The notes under the pieces were generated by a model that made no database searches, was not told where the DNA came from, and saw only the letters and a program-made list of their open reading frames with translations. 64,000 nt of DNA. It comes from Octopus vulgaris (taxonomy: Eukaryota). Within the stretch, counting starts at the first letter, position 1. Each line of letters begins with the position of its first letter. Made by a program: the position numbers and the translations under genes. Location of the stretch: contig OX597822.1 of the NCBI GenBank assembly GCA_951406725.2, positions 52,328,001-52,392,000 on the forward strand. The letters are read 5' to 3'. This document shows, piece by piece, positions 1-54,893 of the stretch.

Positions 1-720
1 GGAGAACTTTTCAAGTGTATTGGCGAAAAAACTGTGTTCAGACTACCCGATGTCGTCTGAAAAAGATCAGTAAACCAGTAACATCAGTTAAAAGGCCTCC
101 TTTAAGCAAAATACACATACAAAATCGTCTGAACTGGGCAGAAGATAACATGAAGGTCGTCTTTGCAAATGTTTTGTTTACTGACGAAACATGTTCTATT
201 CTTGATGGACCTGATGCTTGGTGCAAGGGATGGGTTGTAAATGGATGAGATCGTCATCAACGCTTGAGACACCAACAAAACGGAGGAGACATCATGATTT
301 GGGTAGGTATTATTGGAAGCATTATGGTTGATCCTTGGAAAGTGCCTGACGATGTTTAAATGGCTTCGGGTGCATACACAACCTTTCCGAGGGAGCACCT
401 TGAACCTTGGTTCAAAAAGCAAAGGGTCACTTTCACGGCAACCATAACTCAGCGATGAAAACTACAAAGTGTCTGCAACAATTAGGCTTCTGTAGACTGT
501 GGAAGATGAAGTGGCCTGCCTGTTCCCACAACTTAAACCCAATAGAAAACTAGTAGAGTATTCTAAAGCGACGAGTTCACGAGAATGGACGCCAATTTAG
601 GAGTAAGGATGAACTGTGACGAGCAATAGTGGATGTATCCCGTGGTATAACATCAGAGGAGATCCAGAAATTAGCATGTTCCGTGGACCAGCACATTTTC
701 CAACTTATTTCAAACAAACT
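1..720 (+). mobile_element. Decayed Tc1-like DDE transposase fragment, truncated by the window start
   Basis: Translated segments RLNWA..VLFTDE, GGDIMIWVGI and WPACSHNLNPIEN (cf. Tc1 WPxxSPDLNPIEN), broken by stops and frameshifts. Confidence 0.85.
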
Positions 721-15868: not shown

Positions 15869-16741
15869 CTTTGAAAGAAAAAGAAAATATAATATGAATA
15901 TATATTTATATAAGTTCAGGTGTAAGCTCGTTTAAGGGATAACATCCAGGTACTTAGGTTGCCTCGTTCATCTTTGGGAAGGTCTGAGACAAAGGCTGTA
16001 TTAATAACGTCCCAGCCGGACGTCCCTGTGAGAGGGGGATGGTTCACCAGACACAACGGTTTCCTCAAGCTAACATGTTTAAGCGTCAAATGACAACCAC
16101 ATGTAACGGCGGTGCAGCAGCATGGCCACAGCTCTGAGGTGAAACTACAGAAAAAAACGTTCAGACATGAGTGTTTGGTTAAGAACCTCGCTTTCCAACA
16201 TCGCGGTGTCGGGTTAAGTCCCGCTCCTTGCCTAGTATCTTCTACTATAGTCCCGCTCCTTAGCAAGTATCTTCTACTGTAGCACAGGACCAATTAATGC
16301 ATTGCTGTATATATGTGTGCGGGGAGGGGTCTTTGTATTTGTCACCTCACCGTTTGATAATTGTTACTAGTTTGTTTACGACATCGTAACGCAACGGTTC
16401 ACAAAAAGATCGATAGAATAAATACTAGCTATAAAACATAAATACGGGGAGACAAATGAAAGAAACAAGTAAAAAATAAAAGACGTGTATGTATGTGTAC
16501 ATAAAGATAAGTATACAGAAATATGTTTGCTTGTATATGTATATGTATATATATGTGTGTGTGTATGAATGCATGAATATATGTATGTATCCGTAAACAT
16601 CACTGTGTTGTGTCGAAATGCTAAGCTTCACATTAAGCTTTGTCTTTCTTCCTCAAAGCTTCTTCTTTTCCGAGTCCCCTGCAGGTGTCCTGAGAGCCAA
16701 AGAAGGCCATGGGTACTGGCTATGCCTCCAGAAACATTAAA

Positions 16742-22937: not shown

Positions 22938-23351
22938 GCGGCGAGCTGGCAGAAGCGTTAGCACACCGGGTGAACTGCTTAGCGTTATTTCATCTGCCGC
23001 TACGTTCTGAGTTCAAATTCCGCCGAGGTCGTCTTTGCCTTTCATTCTTTCGGGGTCGATAAATTAAGTACCAGTTGCGCACTGGGGTCGATGTAATCGA
23101 CTTAATCCATTAGTCCGTTCTTGTTTGTTCCCTCTGTGTTTAGCCCCTTGTGGGTAGCAAAGAAAAAGGTATTTCGTCTGCCTTTACGTTCTGAGTTCAA
23201 ATTCCGCCGAGGTCGACTTTGCCTTTCATCCTTTCGGGATCGGTAAATTAAGTACTAGTTTCGCGCTGGGGTCGATATAATCGACTTAATCCGTTTGTCT
23301 GTCCTTGTTTGTCCCCTCTGTGTGTAGCCCCTTGTGGGCAGTAAAGAAATA
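22938..23351 (+). mobile_element. SINE family A dimer with 21-bp TSD
   Basis: Full unit plus headless unit, flanked by agaaacattaggagtactaaa at 22917-22937 and 23352-23372. Confidence 0.9.
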
Positions 23352-27077: not shown

Positions 27078-27996
27078 TGTTTCTTTATTAGCCACACAGG
27101 GCTGCACACAGATAGAACAAATTACAAGGTAGAGCTTTTCTTTTGAAGGTTTAAAAAAAAAATAAAAGGAAGGGGGAGTTTCGATCAAAAGGGATCGTAA
27201 AAGGAGAGAAAGAGGACAGAAAAAAGGGGGGTTAAAAAAAGGGGGAGAGGAAAAAAAAAAAATTGATCAATAGGGATCGTTATCACAGAAATGTCAATAT
27301 GAGGTGTAAAGGGGAGGACAGGGGAGGTTTACCCGTGGAAAGAAAAGCCTACGGAAAAGACCACGGTAACCTCGGTCAATGGAGTCACATGTTATATTTC
27401 TTTTTTTTTTTTTTTTTGCAAATAAGCAACTCTCTGTTTTCAATTTCTGGGTTCATAGGATCATGCTCAAGGTGGCTTCGTCATTCATACGTGCCATTCT
27501 TGCTACATTCACCCATCTTTTTTTAAAACATTCGCTAGACAAAACTTGCCTCTCTACTCTCACTTTCCTTTTCAAGTGGTACTTGAAGAAGTTGATGAGA
27601 GATTGACCAGAGAGGAAAGTGTTTGTCTCCAATCCTTTCAGACGCGTCCACCAGATACATTCTTTCGCCATAGCCACAAGGATGATGAAAATAGCTCTTC
27701 CTTCCCGTTTGAAGGAGGGAGGCGTGACAATATTGACGATAGACTCAGCTGATAAACCGACTCGTCCCACACGTGACAGCAGTTGTTCGACACAAGCCCA
27801 CAGGTCGGAAATTGTTGGACACTGCACGAGTGCGTGCAGAACGGTTTCGTCGCTCTGACCGCATCTCGGGCAGGTCGGCCCCGTGTTTCTCGAGCCGTGT
27901 CTGTAGAGCTTATCCCGAACGGGTAGCGCTTCTCGGTAGCACTGCCAGGCCAGGGATCTCTGGAAGTTGTCCATGGGCTCTGGCCCGAAAGTCGTC
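27078..27996 (-). mobile_element. 5'-truncated L1/Tx1-like LINE (ORF2 C-terminal zinc-binding region plus 3' UTR)
   Basis: Open frame LAWQCYREALPVRDKLYRHG..CPRCGQSDETVLHALVQC (zf-RVT-like). AATAAA at the 3' end; (GATA)n on both sides. Confidence 0.85.
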
Positions 27997-28099
<103 letters not shown>

Positions 28100-29026
28100 A
28101 GAGTGTCTGAAGTACACATAATTTTTGCATTTCTCTCAAGTAAGATCGTTGCTCTTACTGTTTTGAATTTCCACTCTCTCCCACCACCGTAAATAAGAAT
28201 GGAGCAAATATAATATTTGATACATTTATAACAAAGCAATAAACACTGGATTTAATGGCTGTTTGCTAAAAATGTGTCTTGACACTGATGCCATTCATAT
28301 TGACAACATAAGTGAAGGAGATATAGCTTCGGCAGAGGTTGAAATGTCCTTGTGTCAGTTATCTGGAAGTTTACTTCCTGCGTTATTTCTCCCACCAGTT
28401 AAAGAAAAAATACAGGATTTCAAAACGGAATAGCACCTGAGAATATGATGGAAACAGTTTCTTATTGCATCAACAACTTCCAACTACTACAAATATCTCC
28501 GAATATCATGTAGATATGCACCTGCGATGCTCCTTACTTTAACACCATCCTTAAAACCTTCGCTCTTTCCCTCAATCTAGGCAATATAAAACTATGTTTA
28601 TACATAAAACTATCAACAGAATGAAGACATAGTCTCATTTGTTCCAAGCATTATGCTGAGAGGCACATCACTAATAGATAGAGGTTACAAATGACAAGCT
28701 CCAACTAATTAATCCTCGGCCGTTTCGTACGCAACTATCACTATAATCTACTGCCTCACACAAACAGACTCAATAGTGGAGAAAAAAAAAAACAATTTGT
28801 TCAGATTTTCATACTGCACGCTTATGCGTTAAGTCCCTGCACAGTAGCCTCATCTGCCATTAGGACGAGGTATGATTAGTCTAGATCAAAGACTATGAGA
28901 ATCGTGTTTAATCATACGATTATCTACATTGTGCCATAGATCGGCTCGATCATGTTGATCTACGGTGAAACAATACATAATAACAAACTTAAATTTAACA
29001 ACGATCACAGTATTAAAATATACTAC

Positions 29027-33554: not shown

Positions 33555-33606
<52 letters not shown>

Positions 33607-33619
33607 ATTATATAGAAGG

Positions 33620-33670
33620 AGCTTCTACAGGACTAGTACTGTTTCATTCAAGAGAAATCTTCAGGAAGCT
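33620..33670 (-). ncRNA. Type-I hammerhead ribozyme, left arm
   Basis: Exact reverse complement of 39608-39658. Confidence 0.8.
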
Positions 33671-34043
33671 ATTTAACAAGAATTGTATTAGCATTTATAC
33701 ATTTAGGCAGGTTTAAAGGAGTGGTGGTGGTGGACTTTTTGGGGGTAGGCATAGCGCAAAATATCATACTTGGGGGAGTGGTCAAGGAGTCAGTGGTAAG
33801 TTAGATGAAAGAATAGATAAATAAAAAAATAAAAAAATAAAAAATAAAAAAATAAAATAAAATAAAAAAATAAAAAATATAAAAAATATATATAAAAAAA
33901 TATATATATAAAATATATATATAAAAAAATATATATATAAAAAAGGGGGGGATAGAGTTATAGGTAAATAAGGAGATTCTCACTTATACCTATACACACA
34001 TGTATACGTATCTACACACACATACATACATACACATATATAT

Positions 34044-34090
<47 letters not shown>

Positions 34091-34974
34091 CATATACACA
34101 TGTACACACATACATACATATCTACATACACACATACATACACCCGCCCACATATACAAATTTATACACATGCACATGCCTATACCTGTCTACACATACA
34201 CACACGTATATATGCATACACTCACTCCCATGCATGCACGCATACACACATGTATATATATATATATATATACCCACGACCACACATACATATATACACA
34301 TAAAAATATATATTCATACGCACATACACTCATGCACACACAACACACCTAGTTCCCTATATACACATATTTACACCTATATATACATACACCCACATAC
34401 ACCTATGTACACATATATATATATAAACATATACACGCATACATATATATACATGTGTGCACATACATACATACACACATATATACATACACATACACAT
34501 ACACATGTGTACCTATACATACCTACACATACACACATACATACATACAAATATACATATACATATATATATATACAATCCAATACAGGCCCATTCCCTA
34601 ATTTTAATTTTATTATCTTCATTTATTACTTTTGTTATCTTTGATCGCTAGGGCTAAGAATCCTGGCAATGGCTGCATGTCCATTTGTCTGTCTACTAGA
34701 AGGCAAGTACTCATTCCCGCACGCACACTCATTAGCACGTACATTCACCCATTCGTACACTCATACACATACACGTACGCACGCGTTATATTCATACATA
34801 CAAACATCTACATACGTTCACGTATATACACATACGTACTCGTACCTACAGATTCGTGTCTACACTTTAGGAGGCTAGTCTATACATATACACCAATAAA
34901 TATACATATATATATATATATACCCGCATATACATACACACACACACATATATACTCCTACATACAGATACATA

Positions 34975-35009
<35 letters not shown>

Positions 35010-35223
35010 CAATAATAATTCTCTAAAAGGGATATAGACAGTAACTGCTCGATAACATAAGGGACTAAAGCCATCTGAATATGGCTAGGGACAGGGCAGG
35101 GTGGTGGGGGTGTTACTGTTGCATTTAGCCCCAGGCGAACATCGACGTCACCAGAAAGGCTCGACACCGTCACGGTGCCCTAAACCTGCAAAGGGAGGTA
35201 ATTCCCCGATGAAGCGGAAACCA

Positions 35224-35269
35224 CACACGGACCATGGTTTCAAGGTGTATTGCCTATCATCGGCGTGTG
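35224..35269 (-). ncRNA. Hammerhead ribozyme (CCGAUGA core) in a 359-bp unit
   Basis: Reverse complement of 36098-36143. Confidence 0.75.
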
Positions 35270-35582
35270 GTAGGCCTCCGCTTCCTCGACGAATTCTCAC
35301 TATGCAGGATTTCTTATATAGATTTTCAAGCAAAATACATTTGCTGATTTCGAAAATCTGTTCGAAAGCAATAATAATTCTCTAAAAGGGATATAGACAG
35401 TAACTGCTCGATAACATAAGGGACTAAAGCCATCTGAATATGGCTAGGGACAGGGCAGGGTGGTGGGGGTGTTACTGTTGCATTTAGCCCCAGGCGAACA
35501 TCGACGTCACCAGAAAGGCTCGACACCGTCACGGTGCCCTAAACCTGCAAAGGGAGGTAATTCCCCGATGAAGCGGAAACCA

Positions 35583-35628
35583 CACACGGACCATGGTTTC
35601 AAGGTGTATTGCCTATCATCGGCGTGTG
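35583..35628 (-). ncRNA. Hammerhead ribozyme (CCGAUGA core) in a 359-bp unit
   Basis: Reverse complement of 36098-36143, 359 nt from the 35224 copy. Confidence 0.75.
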
Positions 35629-36097
35629 GTAGGCCTCCGCTTCCTCGACGAATTCTCACTATGCAGGATTTCTTATATAGATTTTCAAGCAAAATACATT
35701 TGCTGATTTCGAAAATCTGTTCGAAAGCAATAATAATTCTCTAAAAGGGATATAGACAGTAACTGGTCGATAACATAAGGGACTAAAGCCATCTGAATAT
35801 GGCTAGGGACAGGGCAGGGTGGTGGGGGTGTTACTGTTGCATTTAGCCCCAGGCGAACATCGACGTCACCAGAAAGGCTCGACACCGTCACGGTGCCCTA
35901 AACCTGCAAAGGGAGGTCCCTAGCCATATTCAGATGGCTTTAGTCCCTTATGTTATCGAGCAGTTACTGTCTATATCCCTTTTAGAGAATTATTATTGCT
36001 TTCGAACAGATTTTCGAAATCAGCAAATGTATTTTGCTTGAAAATCTATATAAGAAATCCTGCATAGTGAGAATTCGTCGAGGAAGCGGAGGCCTAC

Positions 36098-36143
36098 CAC
36101 ACGCCGATGATAGGCAATACACCTTGAAACCATGGTCCGTGTG
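36098..36143 (+). ncRNA. Type-I hammerhead ribozyme with variant core
   Basis: cacacg CCGATGA t-agg-caataca-cct-t GAAA ccatgg TC cgtgtg: stem I 6 bp, stem II 3 bp, palindromic stem III ACCATGGT, GUC site after 36137. Confidence 0.75.
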
Positions 36144-36455
36144 TGGTTTCCGCTTCATCGGGGAATTACCTCCTTTTGCAGGTTTAGGGCACCGTGACGG
36201 TGTCGAGCCTTTCTGGTGACGTCGATGTTCGCCTGGGGCTAAATGCAACAGTAACACCCCCACCACCCTGCCCTGTCCCTAGCCATATTCAGATGGCTTA
36301 GTCCCTTATGTTATCGAGCAGTTACTGTCTATATCCCTTTTAGAGAATTATTATTGCTTTCGAACAGATTTTCGAAATCAGCAAATGTATTTTGCTTGAA
36401 AATCTATATAAGAAATCCTGCATAGTGAGAATTCGTCGAGGAAGCGGAGGCCTAC

Positions 36456-36501
36456 CACACGCCGATGATAGGCAATACACCTTGAAACCATGGTCCGTGT
36501 G
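36456..36501 (+). ncRNA. Type-I hammerhead ribozyme with variant core
   Basis: Identical to 36098-36143, 358 nt downstream. Confidence 0.75.
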
Positions 36502-37102
36502 TGGTTTCCGCTTCATCGGGGAATTACCTCCCTTTGCAGGTTTAGGGCACCGTCACGGTGTCGAGCCTTTCTGGTGACGTCGATGTTCGCCTGGGGCTAA
36601 ATGCAGCAGTAACACCCCCACCACCCTGCCCTGTCCCTAGCCATATTCAGATGGCTTTAGTCCCTTATGTTATATATATATATATATACACATATACATA
36701 CAAACACATATACACATATACACATATACACACACACACACATATGTGTGTGTGTGTGTATATGTGTATATGTGTATATGTGTTTGTATATATATGTGTA
36801 TATATGTATATGCATATGTATGTGTGTATGTATGTGTATGTATGTATAAAATATTATATAATTAGGGCTTAGGAAAATAAAATAAATTACTTTGCCACAT
36901 ACTAAACTTTCTAGAAATAGCAGCCAATAAAGTTTTTTAGCCTCTTCCACTACTTAGAGAATTTTTTTCCCTCTAACATTGTTTACTCAAAATAATATTG
37001 GTCCCTTTACATACTGAACACTTGATGAAATTGATTAATAACTAATTAACTTTACCCTCCCTTGTTGATATATATATACATATGTATATGTGTACATGTA
37101 TG

Positions 37103-37133
<31 letters not shown>

Positions 37134-37391
37134 ATGTGTGTATGTATGTATTTGTATATGTGTGTGTGTATATGTATGTGTGCGCATGTGTGTGTATGTA
37201 TGTGTATGTATACTTGTATATGTATATGCATGAATGTATATATATGTGTGTGTATATGTGTATTATGTATGTATTTATATAGATATGTAGTTTATATATA
37301 TATATGTATGTATATGCATCTGTCTGTGTGTGTGTATGTGTATATATGTGTATCATTTTTGCGTATGTATACATGTATATGTGTATATGTA

Positions 37392-37428
<37 letters not shown>

Positions 37429-37705
37429 GTGTATATATATGTATATATATATATGCATACGTATGTGTATGTACATGTATATATGTATGTGTGTATATGT
37501 ATATATGTTTATATATGTGAGTATGTAGTGATATAAGTATATGCATGTGTATGTATGGGTATGTGTATCAGTGTATATGTATATATGTATGTGTGTGTGT
37601 ATGTATATGTATGTATATGTGTATATATGTATGTGTATATGTGTATATATATGTGTATGTATGTGTATGTGTATGTATGTGTATGTATATCTATGTGTGT
37701 ATATA

Positions 37706-37755
<50 letters not shown>

Positions 37756-38247
37756 TGCGTGTGTGTATGTATGCATATATGTATGTATGCATGTATATGT
37801 GTATGTATATATATGTGTGTAAGTGTGTGCATATATGTATTTGTAAGTATGTGTGCGCGTATGAGTATGTATGTATGCTTGCACACGTGTATATATATGT
37901 GTGTGTGTGTATATATATGGATGCGCGTGCGTGTGTGCACGTGTATGGGTACGCATGTATATGTGTATGTGCGTGTATGCGTATACGTGTATGTATGTAT
38001 CTGTGTGCGTAGATTTGTATATGTATGTGTGAGTGTGTATATATATATATATATATATATACATATATATAGATGGGTGTGTGTATGCGTATAAATGCAT
38101 GTAAGTATGGATGTATGGATGTATGTATGTATGTATACGTATGTATGTGTGTATGTGTGTATGTATATATATATGTGTGTATATATGTTTGTGTATGTAT
38201 ATATATGTGTATGTATGTGTGTGTATATGTATGTGTGTATGTGTATG

Positions 38248-38296
<49 letters not shown>

Positions 38297-39181
38297 GTAT
38301 GTATCTGTATGTAGGAGTATATATGTGTGTGTGTGTATGTATTTGCGGGTATATATATATATATATGTATATTTATTGGTGTATATGTATAGACTAGCCT
38401 CCTAAAGTGTAGACACGAATCTGTAGGTACGAGTACGTATGTGTATATACGTGAACGTATGTAGATGTTTGTATGTATGAATATAACGCGTGCGTACGTG
38501 TATGTGTATGAGTGTACGAATGGGTGAATGTACGTGCTAATGAGTGTGCGTGCGGGAATGAGTACTTGCCTTCTAGTAGACAGACAAATGGACATGCAGC
38601 CATTGCCAGGATTCTTAGCCCTAGCGATCAAAGATAACAAAAGTAATAAATGAAGATAATAAAATTAAAATTAGGGAATGGGCCTGTATTGGATTGTATA
38701 TATATATATGTATATGTATATTTGTATGTATGTATGTGTGTATGTGTAGGTATGTATAGGTACACATGTGTATGTGTATGTGTATGTATATATGTGTGTA
38801 TGTATGTATGTGCACACATGTATATATATGTATGCGTGTATATGTTTATATATATATATGTGTACATAGGTGTATGTGGGTGTATGTATATATAGGTGTA
38901 AATATGTGTATATAGGGAACTAGGTGTGTTGTGTGTGCATGAGTGTATGTGCGTATGAATATATATTTTTATGTGTATATATGTATGTGTGGTCGTGGGT
39001 ATATATATATATATATATACATGTGTGTATGCGTGCATGCATGGGAGTGAGTGTATGCATATATACGTGTGTGTATGTGTAGACAGGTATAGGCATGTGC
39101 ATGTGTATAAATTTGTATATGTGGGCGGGTGTATGTATGTGTGTATGTAGATATGTATGTATGTGTGTACATGTGTATATG

Positions 39182-39226
<45 letters not shown>

Positions 39227-39607
39227 ATATATATGTGTATGTATGTATGTGTGTGTAGATACGTATACATGTGTGTATAGGTATAAGTGAGAATCTCCTT
39301 ATTTACCTATAACTCTATCCCCCCTTTTTTTATATATATATTTTTTTATATATATATTTTATATATATATTTTTTTATATATATTTTTTATATTTTTTAT
39401 TTTTTTATTTTTTTATTTTATTTTATTTTTTTATTTTTTATTTTTTTATTTTTTTATTTATCTATTCTTTCATCTAACTTACCACTGACTCCTTGACCAC
39501 TCCCCCAAGTATGATATTTTGCGCTATGCCTACCCCCAAAAAGTCCACCACCACCACTCCTTTAAACCTGCCTAAATGTATAAATGCTAATACAATTCTT
39601 GTTAAAT

Positions 39608-39658
39608 AGCTTCCTGAAGATTTCTCTTGAATGAAACAGTACTAGTCCTGTAGAAGCT
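39608..39658 (+). ncRNA. Type-I hammerhead ribozyme, right arm
   Basis: agcttc CTGAAGA t-ttc-tctt-gaa-t GAAA cag-tactagtc-ctg TA gaagct: canonical core, stem I 6 bp, GUA site, AATAAA ~10 nt downstream. Confidence 0.8.
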
Positions 39659-39741
39659 CCTTCTATATAATAAATTAATTTTACTCTGCTATGTATTGAG
39701 TACCTTACTTACTGTGGTTAACCCCGAATCAACCCGGGACC

Positions 39742-39779
<38 letters not shown>

Positions 39780-41183: not shown

Positions 41184-42143
41184 CTAAATTGAAGAATTTC
41201 AAGAAGAGAAAAAGGAAACAAAATGAATGATAATATCAGATTTTTCCGTTTGTGAATGAAAAAGAAAACATAAATTAAGCAGTAAAAATCAATAAAGCTC
41301 TGGCGGTTAGTGATTATAAATACTATAAAAGTGAAATAAATTAGTGTTCTGAACGAAAGAAGTAAAATGTTTCGCTTAGCGCCCTCCCTTAGTCTTCATG
41401 GTTAATTGATTAATTCCAGATTAGAACTGTATTCTTCAAGATACATTGTTGAGGCTGTTGTTTTTAGTGTATTTCTGAAAACTCTAGTAAATACATAATC
41501 TGTTTAAGCAAAGTCACCTTTTATATCTATAGAAAAATAATTGCCAAGGATAGAATTTTGATCAGGAACTACAGAGTCTCGATTTTTATGAAATTTCCAC
41601 AAGCCTTAAGTATTGTTAAATGTTCTATGTATTAGACGTAACAGCTTCCAAACATCTAATGGCTAAATGAAATGGCAACCTCTTCCTTTAGAAAGCAGTC
41701 AAACATTAAACCTGATGGAGCTTTAAAGTATGAAGATATTATTAGGCACAGCTGTTTAGATGCTGGCAATTTGGCACGGCCGACTGGACATTCAACCTAT
41801 TTTGGCGAAAGTACTTGCTGGAGTTGGAGGCAAACACATACATGCACACACGTATATGTGTGCAGAAATACACATATACAGAGAAAAAAGTGTAAGAGAC
41901 AGAATGGGAGAGGGTAAGAAAAATGAATATTACAATTTCTTAATTGAACACGTTGATATAAATATTTTCTCCCTATTTATACACATAAAGATATATAAGC
42001 TGACTCACATAAATAGAGGGAGAAGTGAGGGAGTTCGAGAGAAACGTTAAAACATCTTATGATAAATAAGTCAGCGTCGAATCAGTGACGCCAAAAAGGC
42101 AACGACAAAATGGCTTTGCTAAAATGTCTCATATTCATACGTA

Positions 42144-42985
42144 TATTAGGTTATCCCATAAATGATGCAGTTGGAGAACTAGCAGAGAAGCTTGGATTTG
42201 GTCATTCAACCATTCATCGACACCTGCGTATCATCAAATTAGTCACCAAATTGGGTCAATGGGTTCCTCAAAAGGTTTTCGAGTCTAATCTTGCGCAGAG
42301 AGTGAATGTGTGCTCTTCTTCGCTGTCACGTCTCACGAATGAACCACTTTGGGACCAAATAGTAACTGGTAACGAAAAATGGATTCTCTATAAAAATGTC
42401 AAGTGCCGAAGACAGCGGGTAAAAAAAGGAGAAACACCAGCACCCCAGGCTAAAGAAGGTCTTCACCCACGTAAGGTGTTGTTATCTGTTTGGTGGGATA
42501 TGAAAGGTTTAGGCCACTTTGAACTTTTAAATCCAAAACAGACGACAACAAAGGTGCAGCTTGAGCGGCTTAAGTCAGCGCTAGGAGAAAAAAACAACCA
42601 TCTTTGGTTTCAAGATGAAAGGTGTTCTTATATCATAATGTTCGGCCACATACAGTAAAACTGACATTCCAAAGGCAGGAGCAGTTTGAATGGGAACAAT
42701 GCTCTACCCACCATATTCCCCGGACATTGCCCCATCTGATTATCTTTTATTCAGCAGTCTTCAAAATCATTTGGTTGGAAAAAATATGAATTCTGTAGAA
42801 AGAGTATTTTTCGTCACGGACAAGTATAATTTGGAAGAAGGGCCTTGCAGATCTGCCAGATTGATGGAAGAGCATTGTAGAAAATGAAGGAGAGTATTTT
42901 TTAGATTAAAAGTGAACTTTGATTATCTCAATTTTGAAAAATAAAAGTATAAAAGAAATCACACTATTTATGGGATGACCCAATA
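42144..42985 (+). mobile_element. Internally deleted mariner element
   Basis: TIRs tattaggttatcccataaat and atttatgggatgacccaata. Motifs LGQWVP, IVTGNEKW, KVLLSVWWD, YPPYSPDIAPSDY, with frameshifts. Confidence 0.92.
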
Positions 42986-54309: not shown

Positions 54310-54893
54310 TTCTTCTCTAGGCAAAAGGCCCGAAATTTTTGGTGAGGGGGCCAGTCGATTAGATCGACCTCAGTGCGCAACTGGTACTTAATTCATCGAC
54401 CTCAACCCCGAAAGGATGAAAGTCAAAGTCAACCTCGGCGGAATTTGAACTCAGAACGTAAAGACAGTCGAAATACCTATTTCTTTATTACCCACAAGGG
54501 GCTAAACATAGAGGGAACAAATAAGGACAGACATAGGTATTAAGTCGATTATATCGACCCCAGTGCGTAACTGGTACTTAATTTATCGATACCGAAAGGA
54601 TGAAAGGCAAAGTCGACTTCGGCGGAATTTGAACTCAGAACGTAGCGGCAGACGAAATGCCTATTTCTTTACTACTCACAAGGGGCTAAACATTGAGGGA
54701 ACAAATAAGGACAGACATAGGTATTAAGTCGATTATATCGACCCCAGTGCGTAACTGGTACTTAATTTATCGATACCGAAAGTATGAAAGGCAAAGTCGA
54801 CCTCGGCGGAATTTGAACTCAGAACGTAGCGGCAGACGAAATACTGCTAAGCATTTCGCCCGGCGCGCTAACGTTTCTGCCAGCTCGCCGCCT
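54310..54893 (-). mobile_element. SINE family A multimer (~182-bp period)
   Basis: One headed unit followed by headless units joined at gaaata-gg(c/t)atttcg. Confidence 0.85.

Follow-up and report, generated by a model that had tools for sequence, protein, structure and literature searches.

Probable nesting of an inverted retrozyme array within an inverted Penelope-like element of Octopus vulgaris, and a long/short end rule in both families

Two families of hammerhead-bearing elements meet at 33604-39745 of a 64,000-nucleotide stretch of the Octopus vulgaris genome (GCA_951406725.2, contig OX597822.1, positions 52,328,001 to 52,392,000; hereafter the window, within a 2.8-Gb genome). One, family A, is a tandem array of a 359-bp unit with the anatomy of a retrozyme; the other, element B, is Penelope-like; and each is inverted head to head. 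The array very probably lies inside one arm of the head-to-head B copy, most likely as the outcome of two successive insertions, each likely made by a Penelope-type reverse transcriptase (RT) priming on both cut strands of a TA repeat. In both families, outward-facing pairs of ends obey a strict rule of one long and one short end per pair. The rule likely records how the copying enzyme works, and its fit to two coupled primings by a Penelope RT suggests a tie between retrozyme arrays and the Penelope machinery. The locus displays a retrozyme and a Penelope-like element side by side, with a common target, head-to-head layout and long/short rule, and adds genomic evidence for a proposed, unproven link of animal retrozymes to Penelope enzymes.

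Layout of the locus

The hammerhead descriptor, run over both strands of the whole window, returned the six outward-facing motifs noted in the initial annotation, three on the minus strand (33664, 35263 and 35622) and three on the plus strand (36104, 36462 and 39614). The inverted arms of about 1.4 kb, each with one hammerhead at its outer end, were also borne out: 33604-35008 aligns with 38260-39674 with 2 substitutions and 3 length differences, and the arm measures 1373 bp without its inner (TA)n tract.

The outer features belong to B. On the left, a (TA)n tract (33558-33603), the left part of the B target, precedes an inverted, 5′-truncated minus-strand copy (33604-35008), which carries the short end of the family (218 of the 286-nt end segment) and a type I hammerhead motif with core CUGAAGA (33631-33664, minus strand, core start to predicted cut). 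On the right, a 5′-truncated plus-strand copy (36744-39745) consists of a non-coding, microsatellite-filled 3′ region with the long end of the family, a second CUGAAGA motif (39614-39647, plus strand) and a “tail” of ~70 nt (39676-39745), which is present on this end only; the right part of the (TA)n target follows at 39745-39772.

The array begins at an internal (TA)n tract of B, the left part of the retrozyme target (34977-35007). It has a period of 359/358 and consists of a minus arm of 2.5 units with a long end at unit position 84 (35008-35917) and a plus arm of 2.1 units with a short end at unit position 40 (35916-36673). As annotated, it inverts at 35916/35917, where unit positions 252 and 359 are joined, a junction private to the window locus among the loci read. 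Its four type I motifs (35230-35263 and 35589-35622, minus strand; 36104-36137 and 36462-36495, plus strand) have the core CCGAUGA, a U4C variant; stem II starts from a U-U, stem III carries a CAUG loop, and the predicted cleavage sites of the four motifs are spaced 358 nt apart on the right side and 359 nt on the left. Rfam reported no hammerhead among 150 of the 256 rows for the window, nor on the array alone; the matches in the window rows were microsatellite-driven microRNA only.

Nesting of the array in element B

Between the array and the B inversion centre lies a piece of (TA)n and minus-strand B (36673-36743). It mirrors the sequence from 36744 onward with one mismatch, and it shares with 36744-36805 an extra 8-bp unit absent from four other B copies. 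Since minus-strand B stands on both flanks of the array and the mirror begins at 36744, B folds at 36743/36744 and A interrupts its minus arm, severing this innermost piece. The nested palindrome described earlier does comprise two palindromes, but they are not concentric, the B centre being separate from that of A; likewise the right element extends beyond the left arm, but it starts at 36744 and not at about 36850. The site of A in the B minus arm is a (TA)n tract homologous to 38254-38292, and the same arm lacks ~1455 bp between identical 13-mers at 36793-36805 and 38248-38260. All four outer ends are ordinary ends of their families.

The initial annotation attributed the composite to one template-switching event, which found no support: the families are inverted separately, at junctions of their own. 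A single event in which the RT switched back and forth between B and A RNA templates would require three inversions or switches, while A retains its ordinary 84/40 ends on (TA)n and is flanked by minus-strand B on both sides. The B-A junction is also unique; its exact pattern matched the genome once, at the window locus, and the short-end version not at all. Such patterns miss mutated copies and tracts outside 14-44 nt, and were used in place of an earlier junction-query similarity search (40 of 1670 candidates scored) that missed the window locus. The annotation held that its reading would fail if the two elements were never associated elsewhere, and such association was for the most part lacking, with A inside B at 0 of 51 other A loci and A in B at 0 of 20 B loci. 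The composite A+B unit was not seen to recur, and elsewhere each of A and B is inverted on its own in (TA)n. In favour of a single event, both parts are very young (the arms are 2 substitutions apart), A sits exactly at the 1.45-kb loss of the left B arm, so that the events may be linked, and a second A-B contact is known at C1:40686021; overall we consider it improbable. (TA)8+ tracts number 67 in 97.7 kb, with 2-7.9 tracts per B locus, and 1.8-7.3 chance nestings are expected genome-wide. At the window locus, two young elements of known kinds have likely come to be nested by chance.

Under two successive insertions, B would first have entered a (TA)n tract, with one strand primed at the long end and the other at the short end ~70 nt upstream, leaving two B copies joined at 36743/36744. 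The minus arm would then have lost ~1.45 kb, a gap that is observed and whose cause is conjectural, before or together with the insertion of A. A would later have entered the (TA)n of that arm, with its long end (84) on one side and its short end (40) on the other, and its copies joined at its own junction at 35916/35917.

Long reads are known to yield spurious palindromes, and we weighed an assembly or read fold-back error. No listed piece spans the junction stretch among contigs of four runs (1096 pieces lie outside the listing), and noise is evident in some fetched arrays (L062, J18). The left and right sides, however, do not mirror each other: they have four different family-typical ends, unequal arms and unrelated flanks, which argues, as the annotation held, against a simple read fold-back. 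Six other minus-to-plus arm joints, five of them at depth 31-67, occur in contigs of public runs X4 and X20, which suggests inversion junctions of other loci. We give an artefact almost no credence.

At L154 (G000:C1:40685850-40689880), a 185-bp A stub and the long end of an inverted B insertion lie on a common TA tract, the stub being outside that insertion.

Family A

A search with the A unit, in which the best 40 of 659 candidates were scored, gave 264 matches; the 150 listed are 99-100% identical over the 359-bp unit. Exact patterns place A ends joined to (TA)n at 751 long and 516 short ends genome-wide. A is thus a young dispersed family and, judged by its sequence anatomy against PMC7229834, is a non-LTR (long terminal repeat) retrozyme. 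The unit is non-coding (the longest stop-free frames in the array reach 98 aa), tandem and within the 170-400 nt class, with arms of up to 15 units at other loci. Each unit has one type I hammerhead motif by the descriptor, for which Rfam gives no score. The core departs from the canonical catalytic sequence by U4C in 187 of 187 aligned units, and we regard it as a variant core rather than a lost motif. Folding prediction gives the monomer the shape of a branched rod (z -4.79), with the 44-nt tail between the two A ends lying within one hairpin branch.

Among the 36 other loci named in the 150 listed matches, 29 are inverted, always minus-then-plus and with a different junction each, and seven are one-way. 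Ends at the inverted loci are mixed at 26 (32-40 vs 69-84), unclassifiable at three (L038, L040 and L062) and alike at none. A query containing the long end yielded 15 further loci, of which nine are inverted, all with mixed ends. Most A ends lie in (TA)n; target duplications of ~8-14 bp are readable at L049 and L051 because the target there is not pure TA.

A 360-bp subfamily (extra A near 139, T149G) shows the 40/84 end rule likewise (L137, L140, L142-L144, L151 and L156-L158). Some unit variants recur, several of them A>G or T>C (L041, L047, L059, L063, J18 and others), with editing of the template RNA as a possible source. The 359-bp unit also occurs in runs X1, X14, X15 and X18, labelled as four other organisms, at low depth in X1 and X14; relatives, mixed samples or contamination may account for it.

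Three other explanations were tried and rejected. Derivation of A from the B terminal repeat is ruled out by the lack of sequence similarity, and a foldback DNA transposon by the unlike ends and variable junctions; truncation at the ribozyme cut site would place arm starts there, and 3 of 78 lie within 5 nt vs 2.4 expected.

Element B

The arm-end search gave 954 candidates and identified the arm end as a family separate from A, for which exact patterns count 2360 long ends and 1355 short ones abutting (TA)n across the genome. The Penelope-like nature proposed for the structure was upheld, with inverted 5′-truncated copies, a tail at one end and a hammerhead. At 20 fetched B loci, chosen for a long end among the best 40 of the 954 candidates, an inverted partner end is visible at 14 and is short in all 14 (213-220 vs 286). 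At these loci one arm may reach up to ~2 kb further 5′ than the other, and either arm can be the longer.

Longer B copies extend 1.67 kb further 5′, into two overlapping frames (L119/L100) that resemble RT clusters in the atlas (first hit 0.96, RT-named clusters 0.95). A Pfam scan of these frames returned no RT or GIY-YIG hit; GIY-YIG and zinc-finger motifs, read by eye, may be present, and we take a linker motif resembling that of Neptune/Nematis as an unconfirmed lead. The sequence features suggest that B is an endonuclease-positive (EN+) Penelope-like element whose upstream frames are of RT and GIY-YIG-like type. The copy in the window begins downstream (3′) of them, and its arms are, on sequence grounds, the non-coding 3′ part of a Penelope-like element. 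The B hammerhead core is retained in diverged copies; the isolated motif folds no better than shuffled sequences (z -0.35). Outward B ends in the C1 lists have a median span of 188 bp, many B insertions being tiny inverted terminal-repeat stubs.

One long and one short end

We paired neighbouring ends within 12 kb: 166 ends for A, covering C1 and C2 up to 119.8 Mb once 34 short-end rows lying further out had been set aside, and 162 for B, covering C1 up to 103.4 Mb (38 rows set aside); some loci overlap the fetched set, and the counts are not additive. A gave 46 neighbouring pairs, 45 of them outward and all 45 mixed long/short, the remaining pair being two separate insertions. B gave 42, of which 36 are outward, again all mixed (36/36), and six involve neighbours that lie on one strand or face inward. 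Under independent choice of ends, all-mixed pairs would have a chance of 5e-15 for A and 2e-12 for B. Many ends of both families have no exact-pattern partner, being one-way insertions or inexact ends. Our literature search found no paper with inverted two-ended retrozyme insertions, a one-end tail in retrozymes or a strict end rule, and supplements may show inverted copies. A one-end tail is known for Penelope elements.

Mechanism of the inversions

According to PMC11167929, purified Penelope protein, predicted to be a dimer, cuts AT-rich DNA and extends both strands, with two start sites that bound the tail; passages of PMC8557442 place (TA)n-targeting Naiads in cephalopods. If each cut strand took one site on the same RNA, the product would be head-to-head with one long and one short end. 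We think it probable that such twin priming lies behind each inversion. Junction offsets in A are uniform (39 loci, Kolmogorov-Smirnov p 0.83), with a phase that varies by locus, and the longer arm can be either one (12 vs 15 of 27 A loci); both the uniformity and the lack of a preferred arm fit twin priming. Locus-private variants are found in all units of both arms at L059, L061, L065, L158 and L156-157, as may be expected from one circular template; a uniform source array or assembly polishing would also fit.

Alternatively, a single cDNA could have primed on itself (fold-back) to invert each of the nested insertions, the endonuclease cut then fixing the second end. This would replace the twin-priming step only and leaves the nesting untouched. 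Fold-back has been proposed for Penelope elements (PMC3846280 and PMC8557442), and the B centre at the window locus is perfectly palindromic and contains a private 8-mer common to both sides, as in L101. At L051, shared variants occur near the junction only, which suits fold-back or a linear multimer, and J18, discussed below, shows the same junction-side sharing. Short loops are not in excess among the 39 A junctions, though, the unequal 5′ extent of the B arms is not what fold-back would give, and in vitro the RT starts at each boundary of the tail (PMC11167929). Fold-back is in our judgement unlikely, while still a serious candidate.

More speculatively, a dimeric Penelope RT would hold one RNA on either side of a stem-loop, at two fixed sites, with one DNA strand primed at each; on a retrozyme circle both subunits would roll round, producing an inverted array in one step. 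The “optional tail” of Penelope elements would then be an obligatory double-priming asymmetry, alike in an autonomous element and its ribozyme parasite. We hold this model tentatively, at slightly less than even chances. For the in vitro system, the prediction is that the two strands of one insertion use different start sites.

Several observations weigh against nested, twin-primed insertions by a Penelope enzyme, besides the lack of a spanning piece among those listed. The in vitro start sites did not differ from one strand to the other, and coupling is not shown biochemically in the sections of PMC11167929 consulted. In J18, a variant is common to the junction-nearest units of both arms and absent from most outer long-arm units, a pattern that suggests fold-back copying rather than twin priming. 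A may be mobilised by something other than B, given that the two sequences are dissimilar (best E 1.4) and carry tails of unequal length (44 vs ~70 nt). Target duplications around B or A are illegible here in (TA)n, where homologous tracts are 10-60 nt, and the order of events depends on a low-complexity piece of 55-70 bp. Finally, among the 54 A ends counted over the first 103 Mb of C1, one occupies the same TA tract as a B end, where ~0.1 was expected, and A and B may mildly attract each other.

Transcript folding and ribozyme function

The release of monomers by transcription from either direction, as initially suggested, appears doubtful. Folding predictions for a transcript reading through 35008-36673 give 95% pairing; on both strands, every one of the 47 hammerhead bases is drawn into long-range pairing with the opposite arm, and the core is U4C. 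When the right A arm is folded alone, stems I-III are predicted to form. A natural ribozyme with U4C has reduced activity in vitro but suffices in vivo (PMC3088659), and Penelope hammerheads cleave weakly according to PMC4209133. Could the palindrome be functional, with read-through from either flank setting free monomers cut by its ribozymes? It carries two tandem hammerheads on each strand, its monomer folds well, and known retrozymes yield circles (PMC7229834). Against this, beyond the predicted burial of the hammerheads and their variant core, it is a single young copy for which no host gene was found, and we rate such a function as very improbable. Monomer release is plausible, on the modelled folds, only from a transcription start inside an arm.

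Comparison with known systems

A resembles the metazoan non-LTR retrozymes (PMC7229834; bioRxiv 10.64898/2026.07.22.740005), as far as the passages at hand describe them, in its tandem non-coding units (170-400 nt, each bearing a single type I hammerhead), its short stem III with a palindromic loop and its well-folded monomer; the U-U at the base of stem II recalls axolotl HHR_Amex2. It differs from known retrozymes in its invariant U4C core and, relative to those passages, in its head-to-head arrays, which are dispersed over (TA)n sites and have two fixed ends. The preprint favours local amplification of tandem copies, whereas the A junction differs at each locus; it bases its retrozyme-Penelope link on distribution and similarity to the Penelope pseudo-LTR (pLTR), leaving the mechanism open, whereas A has no similarity to the pLTR of B.

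B shares with EN+ Penelope-like elements (Penelope/Poseidon, Neptune, Nematis and Naiad), as portrayed in PMC8557442, PMC3846280 and PMC11167929, the 5′ truncation, head-to-head copy, one-end tail, AT-rich or (TA)n targets and terminal-repeat hammerhead; B may also have their order of RT then GIY-YIG (the B motif being read by eye). It differs in its tail of ~70 nt vs 30-40 and in its 3-kb microsatellite-filled 3′ region. The one-end rule is strict in B (36/36), whereas these papers call the tail of Penelope “optional” or say it occurs “often”. A Penelope inside another Penelope is on record, Pen2a in Pen3 (PMC3846280).

A and B are similar to L1 twin priming in their inverted 5′ segment, outward 3′ ends and overlap of 0-7 nt at most junctions. 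They differ in that the second priming site is fixed, poly(A) is lacking and the template is presumably a tandem or circular RNA.

Other features of the window

The initial annotation placed the structure in one intron, for which we found no support. No exon appeared among 19 long frames, 16 of them in the window, or among the 290 scanned out of 325 unmasked frames of at least 36 aa. Only transposase and LINE-type domains turned up, the 290 frames giving two transposase hits only; the flanks L120-L123 were outside the scan, and a long intron is compatible with this result. Fragments of Tc1/mariner-type transposases (PF01359, PF01498) and a LINE-type zf-RVT fragment lie at 41660-42655 (plus), 3-245 (plus) and 27456-28154 (minus). 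Tandem 184-bp copies of a common SINE-like repeat occupy 22986-23349 and 54353-54844. A nuclear RNase P RNA match at 15915-16143 (plus; 37.7 vs gathering 28 bits, E 1.6e-09, Rfam), weak at its 3′ end, may be a gene or a pseudogene.

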